DNA from: an uncultured Chloroflexia bacterium
GTDB taxonomy: Bacteria; Chloroflexota; UBA5177
NCBI GenBank assembly: GCA_963737125.1
Contig: CAVTRL010000003.1
Span: 132,204 to 196,203, forward strand
Direction of reading: 5' to 3'
DNA: 64,000 nucleotides
Shown: piece after piece, positions 253-27,159 of the stretch
Layout: each line of letters opens with the position of its first letter
Numbering within the stretch: the first letter of the stretch is position 1
Made by a program: the position numbers and the translations under genes
The notes under the pieces: model-generated
Database searches by the model: none
The model's input: only the letters and a program-made list of their open reading frames with translations
What the model was told of the DNA's origin: nothing

Positions 253-2732
<2,480 letters not shown>

Positions 2733-2833
2733 CGTTCATCCTCCAAATAGGTAAAGCCCTCCATCCACTTGGGACGGAGGGCGCTCCGCGGTACCACCCA
2801 GATTGTCGAGCGAGGCAGATCACGTGGAAGAGT

Positions 2834-2910
<77 letters not shown>

Positions 2911-3108
2911 GCGTCGTCGACCGCTCGTCAACCGCTCATTGTAGCACCGTAACGGGTGCCGAGCGGGCGGTAACAGACATGCTTGCGAGCGAGTTCGCCT
3001 CGTTGCCGGCTTCACACCATCCCGGCTCGCTGCTGGTGCGGCTACTACTCTCGTTTACCGCCTATATAGATGGCCGGGCACTCGCGCGCCCGGCCCAATT
3101 GTACAGGT

Positions 3109-3445
<337 letters not shown>

Positions 3446-3456
<11 letters not shown>

Positions 3457-3794
3457 GAGAGCCGTTCTCCGATCTACACCGGTGACGATATCTTCGATCG
3501 CGATGCGCGTGATCGCACTGCCTATGTCCGGTCTTCTTGCGGTACCGAACCTTTGGCTTGTACTTGAAAACGATGATTTTCTTGGCCGCGGGTCTGCTTG
3601 ACCACTCGTCCGACGACCTTTGCACCGTCGACCAACGGCCGGCCCTGGCGAAGACCACTGTCATCAGACACGAGCAGGACTTCGGTCAACTCGACGGTCT
3701 CGCCTTCCTCATACGGAAGCTTCTCGACCTCGATGATCTGACCCGGCTCGACGCGGTGCTGCTTGCCGCCAGTTTGAATGACTGCGAAAGGCAT
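3446..3794 (-). CDS. rplU: 50S ribosomal protein L21 (apparent internal frameshift)
   Basis: N-terminal [26 protein letters not shown] is in one frame. The C-terminal [21 protein letters not shown] motif is in another frame (ORF 3446..3664). Conserved rplU-rpmA order. Confidence 0.8.
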
Positions 3795-3891
3795 CCGACG
3801 TTCCTTCTGCTGTAGTGCGTTGATGCGCACCAGAAATTAACGGCCCCAGGAGGCCGCTCGCTGCCAGTCTAGCAACCAGATCGGGAGTTCG

Positions 3892-4350
3892 TCAAGCCTG
3901 AGCGGCCTGGCGATCCGCGGCGCTTAGTCCTGGTTCAGAGGCATGGTAGGAGACGATTTGCCAGCGGGCTCCCTTGCGTTCAAGCACGGCGGTCATGCGC
4001 AGCTCTTCCACGCGCTTGTCTTCGCCGTGGGTGACTGTGCGGATTTCCGTGCCGGAGAGCCAGGCAACATCACCGACAGCGTGGCAGATCGAGTTCCGCA
4101 ATCTCGCATCGACCCGCACATCGCCCAACTGCTGGAAGCGCTCTTCCCAGTAGCCGCGGACCTTCTCCCATCCCTGCCTGATGGTTCCCGATCGGCCGGC
4201 AACAGCCGCGTACCGTTCGTGCGCCCAGATACTGTCAATCGCTTTCAGATTCTTGTTCGACACGGCTCGGTAGAAATTGGCAGCAGTATCCTTTACTTCG
4301 TCATTGACGCCGTACCGTGCACGGCCGATGGCAACACCTTTCGGTTCCAC
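3892..4350 (-). CDS. SnoaL/NTF2-like (DUF4440-type) protein
   Basis: 152-aa ORF with NTF2-fold-like composition (W/Y-rich, ...IRTVTHGEDKRVEELRMTAVLERKGARWQIVSYHAS). Confidence 0.5.
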   Translation of the reverse strand: MEPKGVAIGRARYGVNDEVKDTAANFYRAVSNKNLKAIDSIWAHERYAAVAGRSGTIRQGWEKVRGYWEERFQQLGDVRVDARLRNSICHAVGDVAWLSGTEIRTVTHGEDKRVEELRMTAVLERKGARWQIVSYHASEPGLSAADRQAAQA

Positions 4351-4526
4351 GTATACATCCTCTGGGAGCGATTTGGCAGGTGAATTCGAATGGGCCGGCC
4401 GAATGTGCGAGAAAAAGATTTCTCACAGAACAGAAAACATCTCAGGTTCACCATGACGTCATGGTGTCGCGGAGATGTCTCACAGTGTACCAGGTTTTCG
4501 GGCCGAAAACCGGCTCGGTACTCGAT

Positions 4527-5048
4527 TTACGCGCTTTCTTTGCGCCGCTGCGGACGAGAGCGGCCACGCCGATAATTATTGGGCCGACGCGTTGGAGCTT
4601 CGCGTTCGTCACCATCATCCGATCGAACCGACAACGTCGCCTTGTACAGAATTCGATGCGGACAGCGGACCGGACCGCGGCGCGATTCCTCCGCGATTTC
4701 GCGGCCCGAGCAGAGCATCATACCGGTTCGTTCGGATTCCTGCTCGCGAATCATGGCTGCGACGATTTTGTCAATTTCGTAGCCACCCTCATGGCAAGCA
4801 GGATTCGAGCAGGGAACCATTCCCTGCGTGAAGTTACCTCGTCGAAAGCCGATCTTCTTCAGATCACCCTGTTTGTCGTCTTCCGGTCCGCGACGCTCAT
4901 GCCATTCAATGAGGACATCGGAGAGCATTGGAAAGGCCGCCTTGAAGGTACTGACCCCGTTGTAAAACGCGTTCGGACGATACTTTTCACCCACTGTCGA
5001 ACCTCTCCCTGGCAGTACCTGCGCTTCATTGTACGATGCACTCTTCAT
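4527..5048 (-). CDS. Hypothetical Cys-containing protein (CSNPAC...CSGRE...RCPH); atypical lower GC3
   Basis: 173-aa ORF in a lower-GC patch. An ATG start lies upstream of RidA on the opposite strand. Coding status is uncertain. Confidence 0.35.
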   Translation of the reverse strand: MKSASYNEAQVLPGRGSTVGEKYRPNAFYNGVSTFKAAFPMLSDVLIEWHERRGPEDDKQGDLKKIGFRRGNFTQGMVPCSNPACHEGGYEIDKIVAAMIREQESERTGMMLCSGREIAEESRRGPVRCPHRILYKATLSVRSDDGDEREAPTRRPNNYRRGRSRPQRRKESA

Positions 5049-5078
5049 AATGAGCTCAAATGGCAGGAGGTCGACTCA

Positions 5079-5543
5079 ATGTCCTTCGAATCGAGAGCTC
5101 GGGACCTGGGGATCACCGTACCGGAACCGGCCAGACCGCTGGCGAGTTACGTGCCGGCGGTGCGGGCCGGTTCTTTCGTCTACACGTCCGGCCAGCTTCC
5201 CACGGTGAACGGTGAGCTGGAATGCCGCGGCATCGTCGGTGTCGACGTGAATGACGAACAGGCAAATCACGCGGCACGCACCGCGCTGATCAACGCCCTG
5301 GCGGCGGTGGGAACAGTAGCCTCGCTCGACGACGTTGTCCAGGTGGTGCGAGTGACCGGCTACGTGGCCAGCGCGCCTCACTTCACAGGTCAGCCGGGGG
5401 TCCTGAACGGCGCTTCAGACTTGCTACTGGAGCTGTTCGGTGACGCCGGCAAACACAGCCGCGCGGCCGTCGGAGTGGCATCGCTTCCGTTAGGTGCGCC
5501 GGTGGAGATTGACTTGATCGTGCAGCTACGAACGTCGGATTAG
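5079..5543 (+). CDS. RidA/YjgF (endoribonuclease L-PSP) family protein
   Basis: [41 protein letters not shown]... RidA signature. RBS GGCAGGAGG lies upstream of ATG 5079. The 5' part of the long ORF 4317..5543 is read-through. Confidence 0.8.
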
Positions 5544-5596
5544 TTCGGAACCCGGGAGTGATATGTGACTATCGATCACGGTAGCGTGGAGCATTC

Positions 5597-6362
5597 TTAG
5601 AGCGGGCGACGGAAGAAGTCCTCCAGCACCGGCGCCACGGCGGCCGGATCGATATCGTGGCCCTGGCCGGCGAGGGTATGGTATTCGGCTCGTGGTAATG
5701 CGTGTGCCAGCGAACGCGCCGCCTGCCGCATAACCTCGGGAGACTCCTCACCGTCTATAACGATTGTCGGGCACCCGGACGGAAGCGATCGTGTCGGCCG
5801 GCAATGCTTGCAGGATGGACGATTCATAGACGAGCGTCTGCGCCAGGTCTTCCAGTGCCGGCCGGAATGGGGCGTTGCGAAGCTGGGCGACGACGGCCGG
5901 TGGTATGCCGACTGCATCGGTTTGAAAGAGCTCGACGGCATCGCCCCGGCGGCCCTCCAGGACGAGCTCGGCGAGCTGCGGAGCAAGATCGCCGGCCCGC
6001 CCTCCGGTGGGCGGCGGCTCGTATAGCGCGAGCCGCGAGACAGGCAGGCCGTACGCCGCAGCCCGCAGTGCGAGGATGGCACCCGAGGAGTACCCGAAGA
6101 CAGAGGCCGACTCTCCGGCAAGCTCGATCAGTGCGCCGAGGTCTTCGATCTCGCGTTCCACGGCATACGGTACGGTATCGGTACTCTCGCCCCGCCCCCG
6201 GCGATCGTAGTTAAAGACGGTGAATTGTCGTTCGAGCGCCGCGGCGAGGGGTGCACCAGTCGCCCGGAGGTTGAATGCGCCAACCACCAGGATGACCGGA
6301 GGGCCGTCGCCGGACCGGTCGAAGGCGATACGCGTACCGTCTTTCGAGTGTACTGCCGGCAC
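5597..6362 (-). CDS. Alpha/beta hydrolase (frameshift near 6000-6120)
   Basis: N-terminal part (GTG start after AAGGAG RBS; ILVVGAFN..., GYSSGAILAL nucleophile elbow) lies in frame of ORF 5748..6500. C-terminal part (LAGQGHDIDPAAVAPVLEDFF) lies in frame of ORF 5597..6121. Confidence 0.7.
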
Positions 6363-6628
6363 GGTGTTCTCCTTTACTTTCTTCTCGGTAAGCGAAGCGA
6401 TTCCATAGAAACGCACTCGTGCGGATTGTAACGGGTTCAAGAAAGCCGCGGGAAGTCCGGCCCGCCACACCGACGGGCGGCACGGCTCATCTCTACGCAA
6501 TTGAATGCGCCGAACATGTGATAAAGGAGGGGGAAACTGGTCGTATCCGACAGCTCCCCCAATGACGGGCAGGGCGGAGTCAGTCGCGGATCTGTCCGTC
6601 GATTCACTCGTAGAGAAGGAGGAGAACC

Positions 6629-7063
6629 ATGATCAAACGGATGGACCACGTGGGCATCGTCGTCGATGATCTCGCGGCCGCGATTGAATTCTTCGTCGCG
6701 CTTGGACTCGAACCTCAGGGCAAGGGCCCGGTCGAGGGCCGGTGGGTGGATCGCGTTGTGGGGCTGGACGGCGTCCGAGCAGATGTCGCGTTCGTGCGGA
6801 CCGCGGATGGCCATGGACAACTAGAGCTGACGAAGTTCCACACGCCCGTGAGTCAGGATCACAACCGGAACGCGCCGGCGAACACACCGGGCATTCGCCA
6901 CGTTGCATTCGTCGTCGAAGACATCGACGCCGTGGTTGCCGGCGCGCGAGCCCGGGGCGTGGAACTCGTGGGCGATCTGGAACGTTACGAGGATATCTAC
7001 CGGCTCTGCCTGGTCCGCGGTCCCGAGGGGATCATCGTGGAGCTGGCAGAACAGATCAGCTGA
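6629..7063 (+). CDS. VOC/glyoxalase-bleomycin resistance family protein
   Basis: MIKRMDHVGIVVDDLAAAIEFFVALGLEP... duplicated βαβββ VOC pattern. Confidence 0.75.
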   Translation: MIKRMDHVGIVVDDLAAAIEFFVALGLEPQGKGPVEGRWVDRVVGLDGVRADVAFVRTADGHGQLELTKFHTPVSQDHNRNAPANTPGIRHVAFVVEDIDAVVAGARARGVELVGDLERYEDIYRLCLVRGPEGIIVELAEQIS

Positions 7064-7238
7064 CCGGCCTCCAACCGAAGAGAGCGATCCGGCTCGCGTT
7101 CCGCACACGGATCCTCGTGCGGAGGGTCGGTGTGCCACCCCGGAACGCACAGAGTCCGTGAATTTCGCCGGCAAATGGCGGCGTGGCAAGTCGAGATCGG
7201 TCGTTTCCGACAGCGGCCAAATGCCGAGCAGACCCGAG

Positions 7239-7754
7239 TCAGTCGCCGGTCTGTCCGTCGATGCGCTCGCGGAGGAGGTCGGCGTGACCGTTGTGCCGGG
7301 CGTACTCCTCGATCATGTGCACCATGATCCAACGCACGGAGACGGACCTTCCCCACTGGCGGTGTGTGACCACATCGTCGAGCGAGTGCGCGGCCACCAG
7401 GGTACGGGCGTCCTCGCATTCGTGTTGCCAGGTGGCGAACGCCTCGTCGGGGTCGGCGGTATCGACGTTGTCGAACTCGCCATCACGATCGGTCGAGGTA
7501 TAGAAGAGCGGAGGGGCGTTATCCGCCTCCAGCACTCGCTTGAACCAGCTTCGCTCGACGTCGGCCATGTGCCGGACAAGCCCGAGCAACGACAGCGAGG
7601 ACGGCTCAGCCGACCGTAGCCTGAGCTGGTCCGCGCTCAGACCGGCGCATTTCATGAGCAGAGTCGCCCGATGGTAATCGAGCCAGGAATCGAGCATCGT
7701 CCGCTCATCGGCGATGAGCGGCAACTCCGGACGGTCGTCAAAGGGTTCAGACAC
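7239..7754 (-). CDS. DinB_2/DUF664 family protein
   Basis: 171 aa, [21 protein letters not shown]...[21 protein letters not shown] is typical of DUF664. Confidence 0.65.
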
Positions 7755-7790
7755 GACCCAGTGTACAGATTGCAGGGGACGTCGCCGGCT

Positions 7791-8447
7791 CTAACTTACT
7801 TCCTTGAGCACGTAGCCCGCGCCGCGAATGGTATGGATGAGATCCGGCTCACCGAGGCGCATGCGCAGATTACGGATGAAGACCTGCACGACGTTCGAGT
7901 CGTAGCTGCTGCCCCAGACTCGCTCGTAGATCGTTTCGGCTCGATGCACTTCCCGTGGGTGTCGGAGGAAAAACTCGAGGAGGTCGTATTGTTTGGCGGT
8001 GAGCTCGACACGGTGGTCGCCGCGCCGGACCTCGTGCGAGCGGGTGTCCATCACGATATCGCCGAACCGGAGCTCCGGTTCCTCGACGGTCTGCTTGCGT
8101 CTGAGCAGCGCCCGGACACGAGCCAGCAATTCGTCGATCGAGAACGGCTTGACCATATAGTCGTCCGCCCCGCTATCGAGACCGGCAATCCGATCGGACA
8201 CGGTACCACGCGCCGTCAATACCAGAATCGGGACATCGTCGGCGGCCCGCAAACGCCGGCACACCTCGAGCCCATCGAGCCCCGGCAGCATGAGATCAAG
8301 TACGACCATGTCGGGTGGCGCGTCACGGGCCATGCGCAGTCCGGCCATCCCATCCGCCGCGACGGACACCTTATAGCCTTCGTACGTCAGACCGCGACGC
8401 AGCAGATCGCTGATCGCTTCGTCATCTTCGATGACCAGGACTTCCAT
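7791..8447 (-). CDS. OmpR-family response regulator (no adjacent kinase)
   Basis: Receiver domain (MVVLDLMLPGLDG, D-box) plus winged-helix C-terminal (LTAKQYDLLEFFLRHPREV...GAGYVL). Confidence 0.85.
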   Translation of the reverse strand: MEVLVIEDDEAISDLLRRGLTYEGYKVSVAADGMAGLRMARDAPPDMVVLDLMLPGLDGLEVCRRLRAADDVPILVLTARGTVSDRIAGLDSGADDYMVKPFSIDELLARVRALLRRKQTVEEPELRFGDIVMDTRSHEVRRGDHRVELTAKQYDLLEFFLRHPREVHRAETIYERVWGSSYDSNVVQVFIRNLRMRLGEPDLIHTIRGAGYVLKEVS

Positions 8448-18810: not shown

Positions 18811-19041
18811 AAGAGGAGGGGTACTGTAGCGGTGTGTTGGCAGTGGTCCGCTTGCCGGCGTCAATCGTACCTTTTGTGCCTTACCGACGTTCTTTTTGTA
18901 AAGGGACGTACGGCTCCCGGGTGAGCCGTTCACAGCGTCATGGGCGCGGCGGCGCTCCCACCCCACGTCGGTACCATTCCCCGGCACGTTTCGTCGACCG
19001 GTAGAAAGCGCAAGCCCGAGCAGAGGCCACGGAGGGTAACA

Positions 19042-19449
19042 ATGGCACACGAAGTACAGCAACAGAAGGACGACCGATCACTCGGCGAGCTGTTCTCTAC
19101 CCTGTCACAAGAGACCACCACGTTGGTCAAGCAGGAGGTAGCACTTGCCAAAACGGAGATCTCGCAGAAAGCAGCCGCGGTTGGAAAGGACATCGCCTTT
19201 CTCATCGCCGGGGCCGTCGTCGCCTACGCGGGGTTTCTCGCACTGATCGCCACCATCGTTCTTGCGCTCGGTCAGGCAGGTGTGACGTGGTGGCTGGCTG
19301 CGCTCGCAGCCGGCCTGGTTGTGGTTGCGATTGGAGGCATCCTGGCATGGGAAGGGCTGACCAACCTCAAACGCGAAAGCGTGGTGCCGCAGGAGACCGT
19401 GGCGACGTTGAAGGAGGACGCAGCATGGGCGAAAGAGCAGACGAAGTAG
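19042..19449 (+). CDS. Holin-X (phage holin family / PF07332-like) small membrane protein
   Basis: RBS GGAGGG. MAHEVQQQKDDRSLGELFSTLSQETTTLVKQEVALAKTEI amphipathic N-terminus plus two TM helices. Confidence 0.65.
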   Translation: MAHEVQQQKDDRSLGELFSTLSQETTTLVKQEVALAKTEISQKAAAVGKDIAFLIAGAVVAYAGFLALIATIVLALGQAGVTWWLAALAAGLVVVAIGGILAWEGLTNLKRESVVPQETVATLKEDAAWAKEQTK

Positions 19450-20672
19450 ATGGCACCGAACGGCTCGATGTGACGAGTCAGGAGGAGTCCCAGTCACCAG
19501 ACACGCCGGAAGCAGATGCAGATCTGACAAACGCTCGTGCCGAGATTGAAGAGACACGGACAGAGATGAGTGAGACCATCGACGCCATCCAGGAGAAGCT
19601 GAGCCCGGAGCATGTCAAAGAGCAGGCGAAAGAAAGTATCAGGCAGGCAACGGTGGGGCAGGTCACCGAGTTCTTGCAAGCCACCCGGCGCAGGGGTGCA
19701 GACACAGCGGGCGCGATGCCCGGGCTAGCTAAAACCACCGGTTCGAAGGCTGCATCCACCGCGCAGCAGAAACCCATTCTGCTCGCCGGGGCCGGCAGCG
19801 GGGTTGTGGGACTGGTGATTGCAGCGCGGATGGTTCGGGCTCGGCAACAGCGTCCTTCACCGACACCAGCACCCACACCTCCCGACAGTGGAACTGTCCT
19901 GGATCGGGTCCAGCGTGCGTTGAAGCAGGGGATGATAGAGGCGAACCGAATCGCTGCACAACGCACCGGTCGAGTGCCGGACAAGCCAATAGTGCCCACA
20001 CGCACGCGGTTCATGGGTCGAGCACTTGGCACCAACCGTTCCCAATCCGCGCCGGCCTCGGCGTCGGAGGGAGGGAACCGCATCATGAAGAAACTTGTCT
20101 TGACCGCAGTGCTGGCAGTTCCGGCCACCACACTGATTGCCAAGAAGATTCGCCAGAGCGCCGGAAAGGAGGAAGCAATGACTCGAAACGATCTCGTCCT
20201 GGCATGGCTCAACAACGCCTACAGCACTGAGAACGGGCTGGTCCAGACACTCCAAAGTCACGCCAAGGACGCGAAAGACTTCCCGCAGCTGCAGGCACGA
20301 ATCCAGCAGCACGTCGAAGAGACTCGACGCCACGCTAATCTCATCCAGGGATGCATTCAGCGCCTAGGGGGAAACACTTCCGGATTGAAGAGCGGCATGG
20401 GAACGCTCGTGGGCAAGGCGCAGGGTGTGGTCGCACGGCCGGCGCAGGATGCAGTCGTGAAGAACGCGTTGGCTGACTCGGCTGCCGAGCAACTTGAGAT
20501 CGCCTCGTATAAGGCGTTAGGTGCGGCGGCCCAGGATCTCGGCGACCAAGAAACACTCTCAATCTGCCGGCAGATTCTCGAGGAAGAGGAGGACATGGCA
20601 CGTTTCCTCGATCAAAATCTACCAACCGTCGTAGTCCAAACGATGAACATATGGCCGGTTGCGGCGTCGTAG
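19425..20672 (+). CDS. DUF3618-domain protein continuous with a YciE/DUF892 ferritin-like domain (possible fusion or lost stop; internal RBS+ATG at 20085)
   Basis: N-terminal ARAEIEETRTEMSETIDAIQEKLSPEHVKEQAKESIRQAT (DUF3618). C-terminal LAWLNNAYSTENGLVQTLQSHAKDAKDFPQLQARIQQHVEETRRHANLI...EQLEIASYKAL (YciE-like). No stop separates them. Confidence 0.6.
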   Translation: MGERADEVDGTERLDVTSQEESQSPDTPEADADLTNARAEIEETRTEMSETIDAIQEKLSPEHVKEQAKESIRQATVGQVTEFLQATRRRGADTAGAMPGLAKTTGSKAASTAQQKPILLAGAGSGVVGLVIAARMVRARQQRPSPTPAPTPPDSGTVLDRVQRALKQGMIEANRIAAQRTGRVPDKPIVPTRTRFMGRALGTNRSQSAPASASEGGNRIMKKLVLTAVLAVPATTLIAKKIRQSAGKEEAMTRNDLVLAWLNNAYSTENGLVQTLQSHAKDAKDFPQLQARIQQHVEETRRHANLIQGCIQRLGGNTSGLKSGMGTLVGKAQGVVARPAQDAVVKNALADSAAEQLEIASYKALGAAAQDLGDQETLSICRQILEEEEDMARFLDQNLPTVVVQTMNIWPVAAS

Positions 20673-20720
20673 TGCCGGAGATAGTAAAGCGACTCTCCCA
20701 CGTGCGGAAGGAGTACTGAC

Positions 20721-21320
20721 ATGGCAAGAGAGGTCAACACGCCGCGAACACTGCGGAGCGCGGACTCCGTTCGCAGCCAGCGTGAGCAACGGCTCATCGC
20801 CCGCTATGGCGGGTTTGACTGGGTCGCAACCTTCCTCGGGTTCGCGGTTGCAATCTTTTTCGGGGTGGTGTTGCTCGGCCTCGTCGGTGCGATTGTGGGA
20901 GCGGTTGGTTTCCAGTTGCATGCCCCGGTGCCCAAGATCGGTAGCTCGATAGCGGGCACGACCGAATCTCTCGGTATCGGAGCACTCATTGGGTCGCTCA
21001 TCGCAACCTTCATTGCCTACCTCATCGGCGGCTATACGGCTGGGCGACTGGCTCGCTTCGAGGGCAAAAAGAACGGGATTGGAGTGGTGCTCTGGACGAT
21101 CGTGGTCGGGATCATCCTGGGAATCCTCGGCGCCATTCTCGGCAATAAATTTGATGTTGCCAAGCAGCTACACCTCCACATCGATACCGGGACGCTCACG
21201 ACCGCCGGCCTGATCTCGCTTGTGGTGACCCTCGTCGTAATGCTACTTGCCGCCATCCTGGGCGGTTCGCTCGGTGAGCGGTACCACCGGAGAATCGATC
21301 GTGAGACAGGTGTACGCTGA
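20721..21320 (+). CDS. Hypothetical integral membrane protein (GxxxG-rich helices)
   Basis: 199 aa with four hydrophobic helices. Start follows the 20672 stop. Confidence 0.55.
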   Translation: MAREVNTPRTLRSADSVRSQREQRLIARYGGFDWVATFLGFAVAIFFGVVLLGLVGAIVGAVGFQLHAPVPKIGSSIAGTTESLGIGALIGSLIATFIAYLIGGYTAGRLARFEGKKNGIGVVLWTIVVGIILGILGAILGNKFDVAKQLHLHIDTGTLTTAGLISLVVTLVVMLLAAILGGSLGERYHRRIDRETGVR

Positions 21321-22006
21321 TGATCGAAGACTACGACGGCTCCGAAGTTCTCGATCGTGATGGCGCTCATATCGGGACGGTAGAGCGCAGCTATATTGAT
21401 GACCAGGGATCGGTGCAGTTCATCGAAGTGAAGATGGCGGGGCTGCGAGCCAGACATCGGCTCATCCCGGTCGACGACGCTGCACAGATGGACAGTGCTC
21501 TGAAAGTCCCGTTCGGTAAGGACATCGTCGAGGCGTCACCCAATGTCTCCTACCTGGGTGATACGGTCGAGGAGGAGACTCTCATCGAGATCCGAGCGTA
21601 TTACCAACGTCATGACCAGACCGCGGCTCCCGCTGCAGTCGAGCCGGCCGCGATTCCGACGGCCAAGTCGGAAACCACTGGTGACTCCGACTCCGGTTCT
21701 TCGGACCAAGACGGTGGAATCGGCGACAAGGTGAGAGGGGCTGCCGAGAAGATTCGCGAGAAACTGTCAGGCAGCAGTAGTTCTCGCGGGGATGAGAATG
21801 ACGCCGACGCAGGCACCAGTGGACGCGTGCGCGACCTGGGAGATGTGATCGAGGTGCCCATCGTGGAGGAGAAGCTGGTCAAGAAACCGGTTGTCACAGA
21901 GGTTCTGCGGATCCGCAAACGAGCCGTATCCGACCGGCAGACAGTCAGCGGTGATGTCCGCAAGGAAGACATCGAGATCGACGAGGAAGGCGATGTGCGG
22001 GCTTAG
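21320..22006 (+). CDS. PRC-barrel domain protein with DUF2382-like C-terminus
   Basis: MIEDYDGSEVLDRDGAHIGTVERSYIDDQGSVQFIEVKMAGL (PRC-barrel). Acidic linker. C-terminal VIEVPIVEEKLVKKPVVTEVLRIRKRAVSD...EDIEIDEEGDV. Confidence 0.65.
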   Translation: MIEDYDGSEVLDRDGAHIGTVERSYIDDQGSVQFIEVKMAGLRARHRLIPVDDAAQMDSALKVPFGKDIVEASPNVSYLGDTVEEETLIEIRAYYQRHDQTAAPAAVEPAAIPTAKSETTGDSDSGSSDQDGGIGDKVRGAAEKIREKLSGSSSSRGDENDADAGTSGRVRDLGDVIEVPIVEEKLVKKPVVTEVLRIRKRAVSDRQTVSGDVRKEDIEIDEEGDVRA

Positions 22007-22033: not shown

Positions 22034-23728
22034 TCAGTCCTCGTCGAGGTAGATCTGGTCTCGCGTGGTCCCGCTCTCCACGGCGCCGGCGTCACGCTTG
22101 CGGGCATCCCGCCGGTCGAAGTAGGTGCCCCACTCGTCGGCCGCCATCATACTGGTGCCGCCGTGACGAGTCGCGCGCAGACGGGTCTGACAGATTACCG
22201 GGGTGTTGAGAGAGCTACCCGCGATCACCACCTGGCCCTTAGACAGCGCGGGTAGCTCGTCGAGCAGGTCACGGCCCACGCTTTCCACCGCACTGGCGAT
22301 GCTGGCCTGATCGATCGGATTCACAATGCGCATGATGAAGTGCGTCATGCACTGGGAAAGCACATCGCCGTCCAGCTTGCCGGGCCGCTGGCTGATCAAT
22401 CCGACTCCCACCCCGAATTTACGGCCCTCGGATAAGACCTGTTTCAGGATGTTGGTACTGACCACGTCGGCGCTGGCCGGCGCGAAATGGTGCGCTTCCT
22501 CGAGCAGACAGAACACCGGATACGGCAGATAGCGCTCGTCGCCTTCGTGGCTGTTCCCCTTGGCGGTGTCCATACGGGCCTTGAGCACGCGTCGCAACAG
22601 GGTCGCGACGATGACCTGCTGGTCGCGTTGATCGATTTCGTTGAGCTGCAGTACCGTACACTGTCCGGGTTGGAACAGCTCGTTGAGATCGAGGTGCCGG
22701 TTGTCGTCGAAATTAGGAGAATTCTTGAGCTGCCGCTCGATGCGCCAGAGCAGACCCGCCACGCTGCTGCTGTAGTCGATATTGCGTTCGGCGTACTCCC
22801 GGTCGATATCGTTCACGGCATTGACCAGATCGTTCAAGGTCCACTTGCCGTCAACCGCGCTGCCGTCCTCGCGCTGGACCCGATTGAAGGCCTCGGTGAG
22901 GATCCACTCCATGCGCTCGCCGAGCGATGGAAGAAGGTACCGCAGGTCATCAAGTGTGAGATTCGAGATTCGCACTTTGACCTGTTGCGGCTTGAAGATG
23001 CGTACTTTCGGCCGGTAATCGCCCTCGCAAAACGCTTCGATGTTTTGCATGTCGGCCAGGGTGGAATATTCGCCATGCGGGTCCGCGATCAGCACGCAAC
23101 CCTTGTTGTACGGTTTCATCAATTCTTCGATGGCCACACCGGCCAGGTAGCTCTTTCCCGATCCCGTGCCCGCGATGATGGACAGATGCGTGCTGGTAAA
23201 TTCGTTCACGTCGAGCGCTACCGGCACTTCACCGGGTGCCCTGCTGAGCAGCGAGCCGACGTGCGCCGAGCCCCGCTCGCCGACTTTTCGGCGGCTCAGC
23301 ACTTCGCTCAGCATGTCGTTGGGCGCGAGATAGATCGAGTCCCCGCTGCGCGGCAGAATCCGTGGATTGACGAAGGCACTCAGCCCGGGATCGAAATGGC
23401 CCATCACGGTCACGGTTACCTCGAAGAGCTCATCTTCGTCGTCGAGATAGCCGACGGCGGCCGCTATTTCGGCCGGCGAGACGTCGGGCGACGCCATGAA
23501 CGAATCCGGGAAGAGCCGTACGGGCGCGCGCTGCACGATCCGGCCGAGTACGGGCCGCTGTCCCTCGACGCCATGCAACATGTAAAAGACAAATTCCCCG
23601 ACCTTGCAGGTGCCATCCTCGTCCGGGCTAATAAAGAGGAACTGATGCGCGTGAATACCTGGTCCCTTGGCAGTGCCGATCTTCGCGTAGCTCACGGCTA
23701 GCCTGCCGGAACAACGCGTGATTTCCAC
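22034..23728 (-). CDS. HerA/FtsK-superfamily (DUF87) P-loop ATPase with N-terminal HAS-barrel
   Basis: HAS-barrel-like N-terminus. Walker A IIAGTGSGKSYLAGVAIEEL. Walker B VFCLLEEAHHFAP. C-terminal ISQRPGKLDGDVLSQCMTHFIMRIVNPIDQ region typical of HerA. Confidence 0.8.
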   Translation of the reverse strand: MEITRCSGRLAVSYAKIGTAKGPGIHAHQFLFISPDEDGTCKVGEFVFYMLHGVEGQRPVLGRIVQRAPVRLFPDSFMASPDVSPAEIAAAVGYLDDEDELFEVTVTVMGHFDPGLSAFVNPRILPRSGDSIYLAPNDMLSEVLSRRKVGERGSAHVGSLLSRAPGEVPVALDVNEFTSTHLSIIAGTGSGKSYLAGVAIEELMKPYNKGCVLIADPHGEYSTLADMQNIEAFCEGDYRPKVRIFKPQQVKVRISNLTLDDLRYLLPSLGERMEWILTEAFNRVQREDGSAVDGKWTLNDLVNAVNDIDREYAERNIDYSSSVAGLLWRIERQLKNSPNFDDNRHLDLNELFQPGQCTVLQLNEIDQRDQQVIVATLLRRVLKARMDTAKGNSHEGDERYLPYPVFCLLEEAHHFAPASADVVSTNILKQVLSEGRKFGVGVGLISQRPGKLDGDVLSQCMTHFIMRIVNPIDQASIASAVESVGRDLLDELPALSKGQVVIAGSSLNTPVICQTRLRATRHGGTSMMAADEWGTYFDRRDARKRDAGAVESGTTRDQIYLDED

Positions 23729-24327
23729 GCCAGATTATTTTTGAGCACGGCAATCACTCGTTTGCCTTCCGGGAACGCGGGCTCGAGCCCTTCGAGAATA
23801 GTGAGCAGAAGATTCGCCATCATGGGATCGTTTCGAGACATCAGGGCCGGCAAGTAGCCCATGAAGAAGCGGCCTTTGCCGTCCCGATGGAACTCTTCGG
23901 CGGCGCCAGGCTCCATCACCTCGACAACATTGCCGATCTGACCGGAGATGGCCGGTACCGCGTGATGCGCTCCGGAGGCGTCGAGCCAGCCGAGGATCAG
24001 GATGTCGACGAGCACGCCCTTCTCATTCAAATAGTCGGGGGAGAATACCGCGAGCTCGGCGTCGCTGGAGAGACGGGGACCAAAGTTTCCGTACTCCGGG
24101 TTGAGCAGGAGGGTATCGCGAACCACTCCGACCAGCGTCACGCTAGAGTTGAGCACTGGCGTCACGGTGACGAACGTGCCGAACGAGTACTGCTGCGGAG
24201 CGGGCACGCGCGCGGTCTCCAGCTTCCCGTACACCCTACAGAGATACGAGATATGCGAATTCGATTTAACGATAGTACCGATAAGCACGTGCTTCCTCGC
24301 GGTAGGGGGTCGCGCGAAGTGTATCAC
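23698..24327 (-). CDS. Hypothetical 209-aa protein translationally coupled to the HerA-like ATPase
   Basis: Stop overlaps or abuts the HerA start (GTG 23728 or GTG 2 nt after the stop). I see no recognisable NurA, SIR2 or nuclease motif. Confidence 0.55.
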   Translation of the reverse strand: MIHFARPPTARKHVLIGTIVKSNSHISYLCRVYGKLETARVPAPQQYSFGTFVTVTPVLNSSVTLVGVVRDTLLLNPEYGNFGPRLSSDAELAVFSPDYLNEKGVLVDILILGWLDASGAHHAVPAISGQIGNVVEVMEPGAAEEFHRDGKGRFFMGYLPALMSRNDPMMANLLLTILEGLEPAFPEGKRVIAVLKNNLAWKSRVVPAG

Positions 24328-24477
24328 ACGCCCGGACGCCGCGATTGGGCGTTCTTGCTACCCTCCAGCGGCGCTGGCTATAGTGGCTTGTGTGCACGAT
24401 GTCCGGGCCACAGCATCAACGTGGTGCTCATTCCATCACCTCCTTTGAGGGTGTCCTTGACTTCACGACTGGCCGAC

Positions 24478-24963
24478 ATGACACGTGTGGACCGCGTCAG
24501 GCGCAATCACGCGCTGGAACACGCCACGATCAGCATCATTACCGAGCGACATCCCAAGGTCTTCCTATCGGGGCGGTCCAATCGAAAGGGCTTTTACGTC
24601 TTCGGGGAGATCGAGACTCGCGAGCTTGGATCGGCTATCAGCGAAGCGCTGCGACGGCTGAAGGCGGGTGAAGCGGAGCTGGCAATTCATCCGCGCTGCG
24701 GCACCAATCTGGCCGTTGCCGGGATCTTGTCCGGTGTAGCGGCGGCCCTGGCGGCGCAGCTTCGTCCTCGACAGAACCGGTTCAGCTATGCTGTGCTGGC
24801 ATCGATCGGCGCGCTCATGGTGGCGCCCGGGGTGGGAACCGAAGTGCAGCGACACTGGACCACGCTGGCCGATATCTCGAATCTCAGCGTAACCCGCGTG
24901 GTACGACGCCGTTTTCCGCTGGTTCGCACGAGCAGTCACTGGGTAGAAACGCACTCGACCTAA
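24478..24963 (+). CDS. Conserved hypothetical protein (HALEH...IHPRCGT motifs)
   Basis: 161-aa ORF divergent from the HerA pair. Possible metal-binding HxxEH and HPxCGT motifs. C-terminal hydrophobic segments. Confidence 0.5.
   Translation: MTRVDRVRRNHALEHATISIITERHPKVFLSGRSNRKGFYVFGEIETRELGSAISEALRRLKAGEAELAIHPRCGTNLAVAGILSGVAAALAAQLRPRQNRFSYAVLASIGALMVAPGVGTEVQRHWTTLADISNLSVTRVVRRRFPLVRTSSHWVETHST

Positions 24964-25045: not shown

Positions 25046-27159
<2,114 letters not shown>

Follow-up and report, generated by a model that had tools for sequence, protein, structure and literature searches.

A 64,000-nt stretch of DNA from an uncultured Chloroflexia bacterium (contig CAVTRL010000003.1, positions 132,204 to 196,203; hereafter the window, meaning the whole stretch) contains two tightly coupled minus-strand open reading frames (ORFs) at 22034-24327, a herA gene and an upstream partner gene whose product belongs to Pfam family PF26500 (DUF8166). 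A widespread variant of the Mre11-Rad50-NurA-HerA cluster includes an extra conserved gene, encoding a stand-alone HAS-barrel protein, and the window pair corresponds to the herA-proximal part of that variant. We consider it rather probable that the locus is a two-gene DUF8166-HerA operon, a reduced archaeal-type Mre11-Rad50-NurA-HerA cluster, in which DUF8166 is an accessory structural subunit. We propose this role because DUF8166 is encoded beside NurA, HerA or both, is co-translated, has the predicted fold of the HerA docking face and contains no recognisable catalytic domain. An earlier note on this DNA had pictured the pair as a self-contained new system, either a defence module or a DNA-processing complex. 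DNA processing is the option that we favour, with little at the locus in support of defence, and self-containment did not hold, as the same two genes form the tail of mre11-rad50-nurA-DUF8166-herA clusters in other lineages.

HerA-NurA, in which the HAS-barrel face of HerA is the docking site for NurA, is the main model of archaeal-type DNA end resection, and structural and biochemical publications present it as a machine of two proteins. To our knowledge, the characterised systems (Sulfolobus, Thermococcus, Deinococcus) have two components and no DUF8166-like gene. The structural paper on HerA-NurA from D. radiodurans mentions no third gene.

Comparison of gene neighbourhoods placed DUF8166 repeatedly beside this machinery. 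In nine related Chloroflexota genomes, whose loci came from a contig scan with a narrow alignment that recovers close relatives only, DUF8166 was followed by HerA in all nine cases, with gaps of 2-6 nt, and an H+-translocating pyrophosphatase (H+-PPase) gene was found near the pair in seven, a fixed place that indicates vertical inheritance. A metagenome scan added 80 loci, annotated with custom hidden Markov models (HMMs), and the adjacency of HerA and NurA was counted only over loci with room for it (76 downstream and 68 upstream of DUF8166). HerA was directly downstream in 62 of the 76, with 5 more having it within 0.6-2.8 kb, and NurA directly upstream in 19 of the 68, with 4 more having it 2-4 kb upstream; the order nurA-DUF8166-herA was seen in many of these loci. 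The synteny on which the earlier note had staked its proposal is therefore present, both in the close relatives and in the larger sample. Gene context follows the DUF8166 subclades: the window's clade, which belongs to soil Chloroflexota, and one other contain DUF8166-herA only, four contain the nurA-DUF8166-herA triple and two contain nurA-DUF8166. Pairs of the last kind, without an adjacent herA, occur in Blastocatellia, in Nitrospinota and in assembly GCA_900175145.1 (Table 1), showing that DUF8166 can be linked to NurA without HerA.

In metagenome loci, Pfam matched genes upstream of nurA to a Mre11-type metallophosphoesterase and to Rad50 (SMC_N plus zinc hook); by phmmer, 8 loci contained Mre11 and 15 contained Rad50. 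The full order mre11-rad50-nurA-DUF8166-herA was found on Anaerolineae chromosomes, on three of the four DUF8166-bearing haloarchaeal megaplasmids (Table 1) and on many metagenome contigs. Annotation of the megaplasmids gives, in order, a metallophosphoesterase, an SMC ATPase, NurA, a 'hypothetical protein' (DUF8166) and an ATP-binding/DUF87 protein; the DUF8166 gene shares 1-4 nt with the herA gene that follows, and the three full clusters are flanked by genes for phospholipase D (PLD) and for DEAD/DEAH and UvrD/REP helicases. When look-ups in Anaerolineae and other Chloroflexota started instead from NurA, Rad50-NurA-DUF8166-DUF87 was recovered in five out of five loci, and a Metallophos (Mre11-like) gene preceded Rad50 in all four with enough upstream sequence, three of which are in a housekeeping context, adjoining RecG, coaD and DegV. 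A review reports H. volcanii to be without HerA and NurA; in contrast, some haloarchaea, Haloferax among them, contain the full cluster with DUF8166, a Haloferax member of that family being WP_154269889.1. A phmmer search of NurA against the PDB gave nothing.

Two loci contain orphan DUF8166 genes (L037, 2265-2903; L038, 5965-6603), with HerA and NurA undetected within 2.3-6 kb on each side. Additionally, in a subgroup without adjacent nurA, DUF8166 is followed by a gene for a type I phosphodiesterase/nucleotide pyrophosphatase (PF01663, E 1e-22 to 1e-29), located between DUF8166 and herA in L024, L025 and L032, while L023 stops within the gene. The PF01663 protein may be an alternative hydrolase partner.

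The downstream gene of the window pair encodes, as far as sequence comparison can tell, an intact FtsK/HerA-family ATPase, whose nearest solved structures are the NurA-partnered HerA proteins of Thermococcus and Sulfolobus. Its central domain matched Pfam DUF87 (PF01935) with E 3.6e-37 and 129 bits, against a gathering threshold of 23.2, over profile positions 2-220 of 220, and contained the Walker A (AGTGSGKS) and Walker B (FCLLEE) motifs that the earlier note had reported. The NCBIfam helicase_HerA model matched with E 1.3e-60, and the best sequence matches in the PDB were 9x1l (T. kodakarensis HerA, E 1.4e-47) and 4d2i (S. solfataricus HerA, E 4.2e-34). Pfam and NCBIfam matches begin only at about aa 90-150 of the 553-aa protein. 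Orthologues in the nine related genomes are 71-89% identical, and the ratio of nonsynonymous to synonymous substitution (dN/dS, with dS saturated) is 0.06-0.14, a sign of purifying selection. The protein did not reach the cut-offs of the NCBIfam equivalogs for HerA in double-strand break (DSB) repair, NF040819 and NF040937, scoring 205.5 bits against 970 and 148 against 800; it thus classifies as a HerA-family member, new to the NurA-type HerA group, and not as an equivalog of the curated archaeal HerA. The repair-type model gave it a higher score (205 bits) than the anti-phage HerA models did (79-87 bits). The window locus resembles the HerA-NurA(-Mre11-Rad50) complex (4D2I, 9X1L, 7F6D) in having a HerA closest to these among solved chains, with both Walker motifs, and in having relatives within mre11-rad50-nurA-...-herA clusters. 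It differs from that complex in the distance of its HerA from the equivalog cut-off (205 versus 970 bits), in the extra conserved gene (DUF8166) that its relatives carry between nurA and herA, and in that the window pair is unlinked to NurA, Mre11 and Rad50 within 64 kb.

Searches of the Pfam, NCBIfam, PADLOC and PHROGs libraries returned no match for the partner, the Pfam copy searched being one that does not include the recent PF26500 model. The family was instead assigned through precomputed annotation of homologues: the partner is 99% identical to a PF26500-annotated protein (P0001), and PF26500 was recorded for every homologue among the matches listed (120 + 120); family members appear in UniRef as 'DUF8166 domain-containing protein'. 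PF26500 is a family without assigned function, and the partner, which the earlier note had called unrecognisable, consequently has a family name that says nothing of what it does. The same note had counted membership of an annotated family, or descent from NurA, against its proposal; the first applies weakly, the family being only a DUF, and the second not at all. An HMM built from 27 NurAs did not match the partner, the NurA domain PF09376, a nuclease fold of RNase-H-like type, was absent from it at E<=1 in Pfam and NCBIfam, and neither PADLOC nor Pfam detected a SIR2 or DUF4297 (Cap4 nuclease) domain, in agreement with the note's reading that it is none of these. Matches to RNase HII in a PDB search (E 0.24) were discarded as noise, and neither the single sequence nor a 139-sequence profile found anything in the PDB. 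In the literature searched we found no paper mentioning DUF8166 or PF26500, although Iyer 2004 or Constantinesco 2004 may contain an early mention of the gene.

The family is large and spans two domains of life. A collection of proteins at 90% identity contained 868 relatives at E<=1e-3, and a profile search of 1.84 billion cluster representatives gave 309 clusters at 50% identity, almost all of stand-alone proteins of ~195 aa. Bacterial carriers include Chloroflexota (among them Anaerolineales and Caldilineaceae), Acidobacteriota, Nitrospinota and Caenarcaniphilales, and archaeal carriers include Halobacteria (Haloferax, Halobellus, Haloarcula), Nanohaloarchaea, Helarchaeota and Thermoplasmata. 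A search of 2.9 million viral contigs yielded no relative. Longer 'fusion' proteins were considered as functional hints and rejected, as they proved to be loop insertions, wrong starts or DUF8166-HerA frameshift chimeras.

We modelled DUF8166 with AlphaFold2 from a diverse alignment of 139 sequences, obtaining a predicted local distance difference test (pLDDT) score of 92.7 and a predicted template modelling score (pTM) of 0.87; with just 23 close homologues the pLDDT was 45 and the model unusable. The model consists of a beta-barrel (~aa 1-125) with a conserved loop-helix insertion, followed by a C-terminal helical module (aa 127-195) that forms a hairpin. In Foldseek searches the best 50 matches were all HerA, the matched part being its N-terminal HAS-barrel, and DUF8166 superposed on the N-terminal barrels of HerA and of F1-type ATPases. 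Thus, among the folds that the earlier note had suggested looking for, the HAS-barrel was found and a nuclease or effector fold was not: no known nuclease fold was present among the structural matches, and the top matches were the HerA chains of SIR2-HerA and DUF4297-HerA entries, not the effector chains. A fold search of BFVD gave nothing significant, and the sequence contains no P-loop. The modelled DUF8166 is, by fold, a stand-alone copy of the HerA HAS-barrel, and we claim no sequence homology. Unlike the HAS-barrel 'crown' of HerA and of F1/V1/FliI-type ATPases, which is fused to a RecA-like ATPase, it is free-standing and has its own helical tail of ~70 aa.

Across the 139 diverse sequences, L61, P64, G70, R72, P84, D85 and E89 are nearly invariant, and H12, R72, D85, E89, H134 and Y145 are invariant or nearly so. 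The most conserved stretch (aa 63-89; Table 1) corresponds to the barrel insertion, and residues 61-90 form a block with pLDDT 69-80, versus 93-98 nearly everywhere else except the C-terminal tail. In the model, this insertion is a candidate partner-binding surface. DUF8166 is also acidic, with a family median isoelectric point (pI) of 5.4, which fits protein-protein contacts better than direct binding to DNA; together with the lack of a recognised catalytic domain, this makes it most likely that the protein acts through contacts with other proteins.

From fold and gene order, we infer that DUF8166 would bind the barrel face of HerA, either as a ring of barrels stacked on the HerA hexamer or on single HerA barrels. 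Bound in this way, it could organise both NurA-dimer docking and access of the DNA end to the HerA channel, or act as a gate for them. The genes for NurA (and for Mre11 and Rad50) would, in the window's lineage, lie at another genomic locus, or a different nuclease would serve the pair.

Several observations weigh against an accessory subunit of a NurA-HerA machine. NurA was absent from the window in tblastn searches and in searches with the HMM from 27 NurAs, Mre11 and Rad50 were likewise not detected in it, and none of the three was found beside the pair in the nine related Chloroflexota genomes (L001-L009), so that in this lineage the link to NurA runs through homology of the pair only. The HerA-NurA complex of S. 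solfataricus reportedly assembles without such a subunit. The solved complexes of D. radiodurans (7f6d) and T. kodakarensis (9x1l) also assemble without one, implying that DUF8166 is not generally required. The likeness to HerA does not reach significance in sequence: hhalign aligned DUF8166 18-132 co-linearly with HerA 8-131 (E 0.014, probability 3%), and the DUF8166 HMM matched HerA N-termini in register at independent E-values (i-E) >= 0.7. The near-invariant polar residues H12, R72, D85, E89, H134 and Y145 could mark a small-molecule or catalytic site. Moreover, the docking mechanism is drawn from the modelled fold and the gene order only.

The main rival is a regulatory or decoy role, in which a free mimic of the barrel competes for the NurA dimer, or caps the HerA pore, and keeps the complex inactive until a DNA end or signal arrives. 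The copy of the HerA barrel seen in the model suits this role as well as it suits a subunit, and the nurA-DUF8166 pairs without adjacent herA are as expected if DUF8166 binds NurA in the manner of the HerA barrel. On the other hand, location in one operon and co-translation at tight junctions look more like a stoichiometric subunit than an inhibitor. We regard a decoy or gating function as unlikely, though less so than the alternatives below; the present data do not separate activation from inhibition.

Alternatively, the pair could be an anti-phage module comparable to SIR2-HerA (Nezha; 8J4U, 8SUB) or DUF4297-HerA (8ZIQ, 9C1M, 8XAV), with DUF8166 as sensor or effector on a HerA platform. The PADLOC HerA models do match the window HerA (E 1.9e-40), and a small partner encoded next to and upstream of HerA is the layout of the known pairs. 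In these, the HerA hexamer serves as a platform that carries the partner on its barrel face, and the HerA chains of the entries are the best structural matches of DUF8166. However, DUF8166 resembles HerA itself, contains neither an NADase nor a Cap4-type nuclease domain nor any other effector-like domain, and matched no model in PADLOC, the check that the earlier note had proposed, nor in PHROGs. Judged by its partner, therefore, the pair falls outside the SIR2-HerA and DUF4297-HerA systems. The absence of relatives from viral contigs and BFVD, the preference of the window HerA for the repair-type model and the conserved chromosomal position beside the H+-PPase gene in seven related genomes all argue against defence, as does a housekeeping context, instead of a defence island, at the window locus; elsewhere too the neighbours are housekeeping genes and the constant companions Mre11, Rad50 and NurA.

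Defence genes do occur inside the operon in one DUF8166 subclade, where complete anti-phage systems occupy precisely the junction of nurA with DUF8166-herA, in the same orientation and with tight spacing. These are Gabija, Lamassu and OLD-family genes (Table 1), and the presence of three different systems in one slot suggests either an integration hotspot or a functional link of the repair-type cluster to defence. Likewise, the haloarchaeal copies are on megaplasmids beside PLD, DEAD-box and UvrD genes. With these points on its side, a defence module at the window locus still appears improbable to us. An equally speculative extension of the subunit hypothesis is that DUF8166 is a detachable docking ring through which one HerA would be coupled to interchangeable nucleases, the candidates being NurA in most clades, the type I phosphodiesterase in others and the inserted Gabija, Lamassu or OLD systems. 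Such a ring would set apart a class of Mre11-Rad50-NurA-HerA machines in Bacteria and Archaea and allow a repair cluster to double as an anti-phage DNA-degradation platform.

A catalytic DUF8166, that is, a nuclease or other hydrolase working with HerA where nurA is not adjacent, would account for the six invariant or nearly invariant residues listed above and for two-gene arrangements without any nuclease within tens of kb. We consider it very improbable, because the predicted structure is an ATPase-crown-type beta-barrel with helices, because DUF8166 co-occurs with NurA in many lineages and so does not replace it there, and because the protein is acidic. Finally, that the upstream ORF arose by chance, or is what remains, without function, of a herA 5' end that was duplicated, would agree with its HerA N-terminal fold and with the many spurious ORFs that GC-rich DNA gives on both strands, but is effectively refuted by conservation: a length that stays at ~195 aa in hundreds of bacterial and archaeal clusters, dN/dS of 0.08-0.25 (dS saturated) as expected under purifying selection, its own ribosome-binding site, and a confident predicted fold with a family-specific C-terminal module.

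With DUF8166 taken as an accessory subunit, what is new here is a known machine with an undescribed, conserved and structurally suggestive extra component, which looks like an overlooked subunit. Gene context indicates that a large, cross-domain branch of HerA-NurA systems carries a third, translationally coupled protein, predicted to fold as an independent copy of the HerA surface thought to bind partners. If DUF8166 is indeed a subunit, reconstituting these systems without it may give an incomplete machine. DUF8166 would also offer an experimental handle on the recruitment of partners to the HAS-barrel face; the SIR2 and DUF4297 effectors of defence systems use this face as well. Together, these data give Pfam DUF8166 a testable role and point to a recurrent insertion site for defence systems within a repair-type operon.

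Table 1. Features of the DUF8166-HerA locus in the window and of related loci.
Sequence	Feature	Coordinates	Strand	Details
Window	HerA-family hexameric translocase ATPase gene	22034..23695	-	553 aa, GTG start
Window	DUF8166 (PF26500) gene	23698..24288	-	196 aa, GTG start
Window	DUF8166/HerA junction TAG-CC-GTG	23696..23700	-	2-nt spacer, read from sequence
Window	Shine-Dalgarno-like GAGGAAG	24292..24298	-	3 nt upstream of DUF8166 GTG start; read from sequence
Window	Most conserved DUF8166 stretch, NPEYGNFGPRLS ... FSPDYLNE	24022..24102	-	aa 63-89, barrel insertion loop and helix
Window	HerA Walker A (P-loop) AGTGSGKS	23150..23173	-	aa 175-182, intact
Window	HerA Walker B region FCLLEEAHH	22487..22513	-	aa 395-403 (FCLLEE aa 395-400), intact
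Window	Putative HerA N-terminal barrel region, KVGEFVFY ... FEVTVTVMGHF	23393..23605	-	aa 31-101; from a co-linear alignment to DUF8166 aa 18-132, below significance
Window	PRC/DUF2382 stress-type gene	21320-22006		convergent on herA
Window	DUF6391 gene	24478-24963		divergent from the pair; H+-pyrophosphatase gene next
Window	Stress-type gene cluster, members	18940-22006	+	Holin-X (PF07332); long ORF with DUF3618 and DUF892/ferritin-like domains, probably two genes; 199-aa membrane protein without family; PRC-barrel/DUF2382 protein with dehydrin-like acidic linker
L095-L097	Full-cluster haloarchaeal megaplasmids			NZ_CP119991.1, CP002989.1, NZ_CP084885.1
L011	nurA-DUF8166 pair	4745-6594		no herA within 2.6-6 kb downstream (L011, L012, L014)
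L012	nurA-DUF8166 pair	3577-5324		as L011
L014	nurA-DUF8166 pair	4825-6576		as L011
L023	PF01663 gene	559-2112
L024	PF01663 gene	2364-3608
L025	PF01663 gene	6420-7865
L032	PF01663 gene	1657-2922
L078	Gabija	1849-5907		GajA E 9.7e-239, GajB E 1.1e-216
L081	Lamassu	2303-5952		LmuA with Cap4 nuclease domain, LmuC, LmuB 3e-80
L086	OLD/AriA-like ATPase-TOPRIM nuclease	3886-5769
L090	OLD/AriA-like ATPase-TOPRIM nuclease	213-2258

The start sites of the two genes in the window were assigned as follows. The stop codon of the partner gene (TAG, 23698-23700) is separated by 2 nt from the HerA GTG at 23695, which matches residue 1 of the HerA orthologues, whereas the alternative GTG at 23728 (ORF listed as 22034..23728) would make herA overlap the partner gene. 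Both arrangements had been foreseen in the earlier note, and the 2-nt spacer indicates that translation of DUF8166 and HerA is coupled. The same note had given the partner 209 aa, which would place its start at 24327; the start giving 196 aa is preferred because of the GAGGAAG site and of the length of close homologues (among the 120 matches listed, nearly all 195-198 aa), making 196 aa the most likely length.

The surroundings are the stress-gene and housekeeping neighbours, convergent and divergent, that had been described before, with PRC/DUF2382 on one side and DUF6391 and the H+-PPase on the other. The stress-type genes form a co-directional plus-strand cluster (18940-22006) convergent on herA. 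A divergent intergenic region of 189 bp (24289-24477) separates the DUF8166 and DUF6391 genes and presumably contains both promoters. The H+-PPase gene (25130-27159, plus strand) is broken into two overlapping ORFs, 25130-26830 and 26812-27159, corresponding to positions 16-529 and 542-645 of Pfam H_PPase, which points to a frameshift near 26812-26830, probably resulting either from a sequencing or assembly error or from pseudogene formation.

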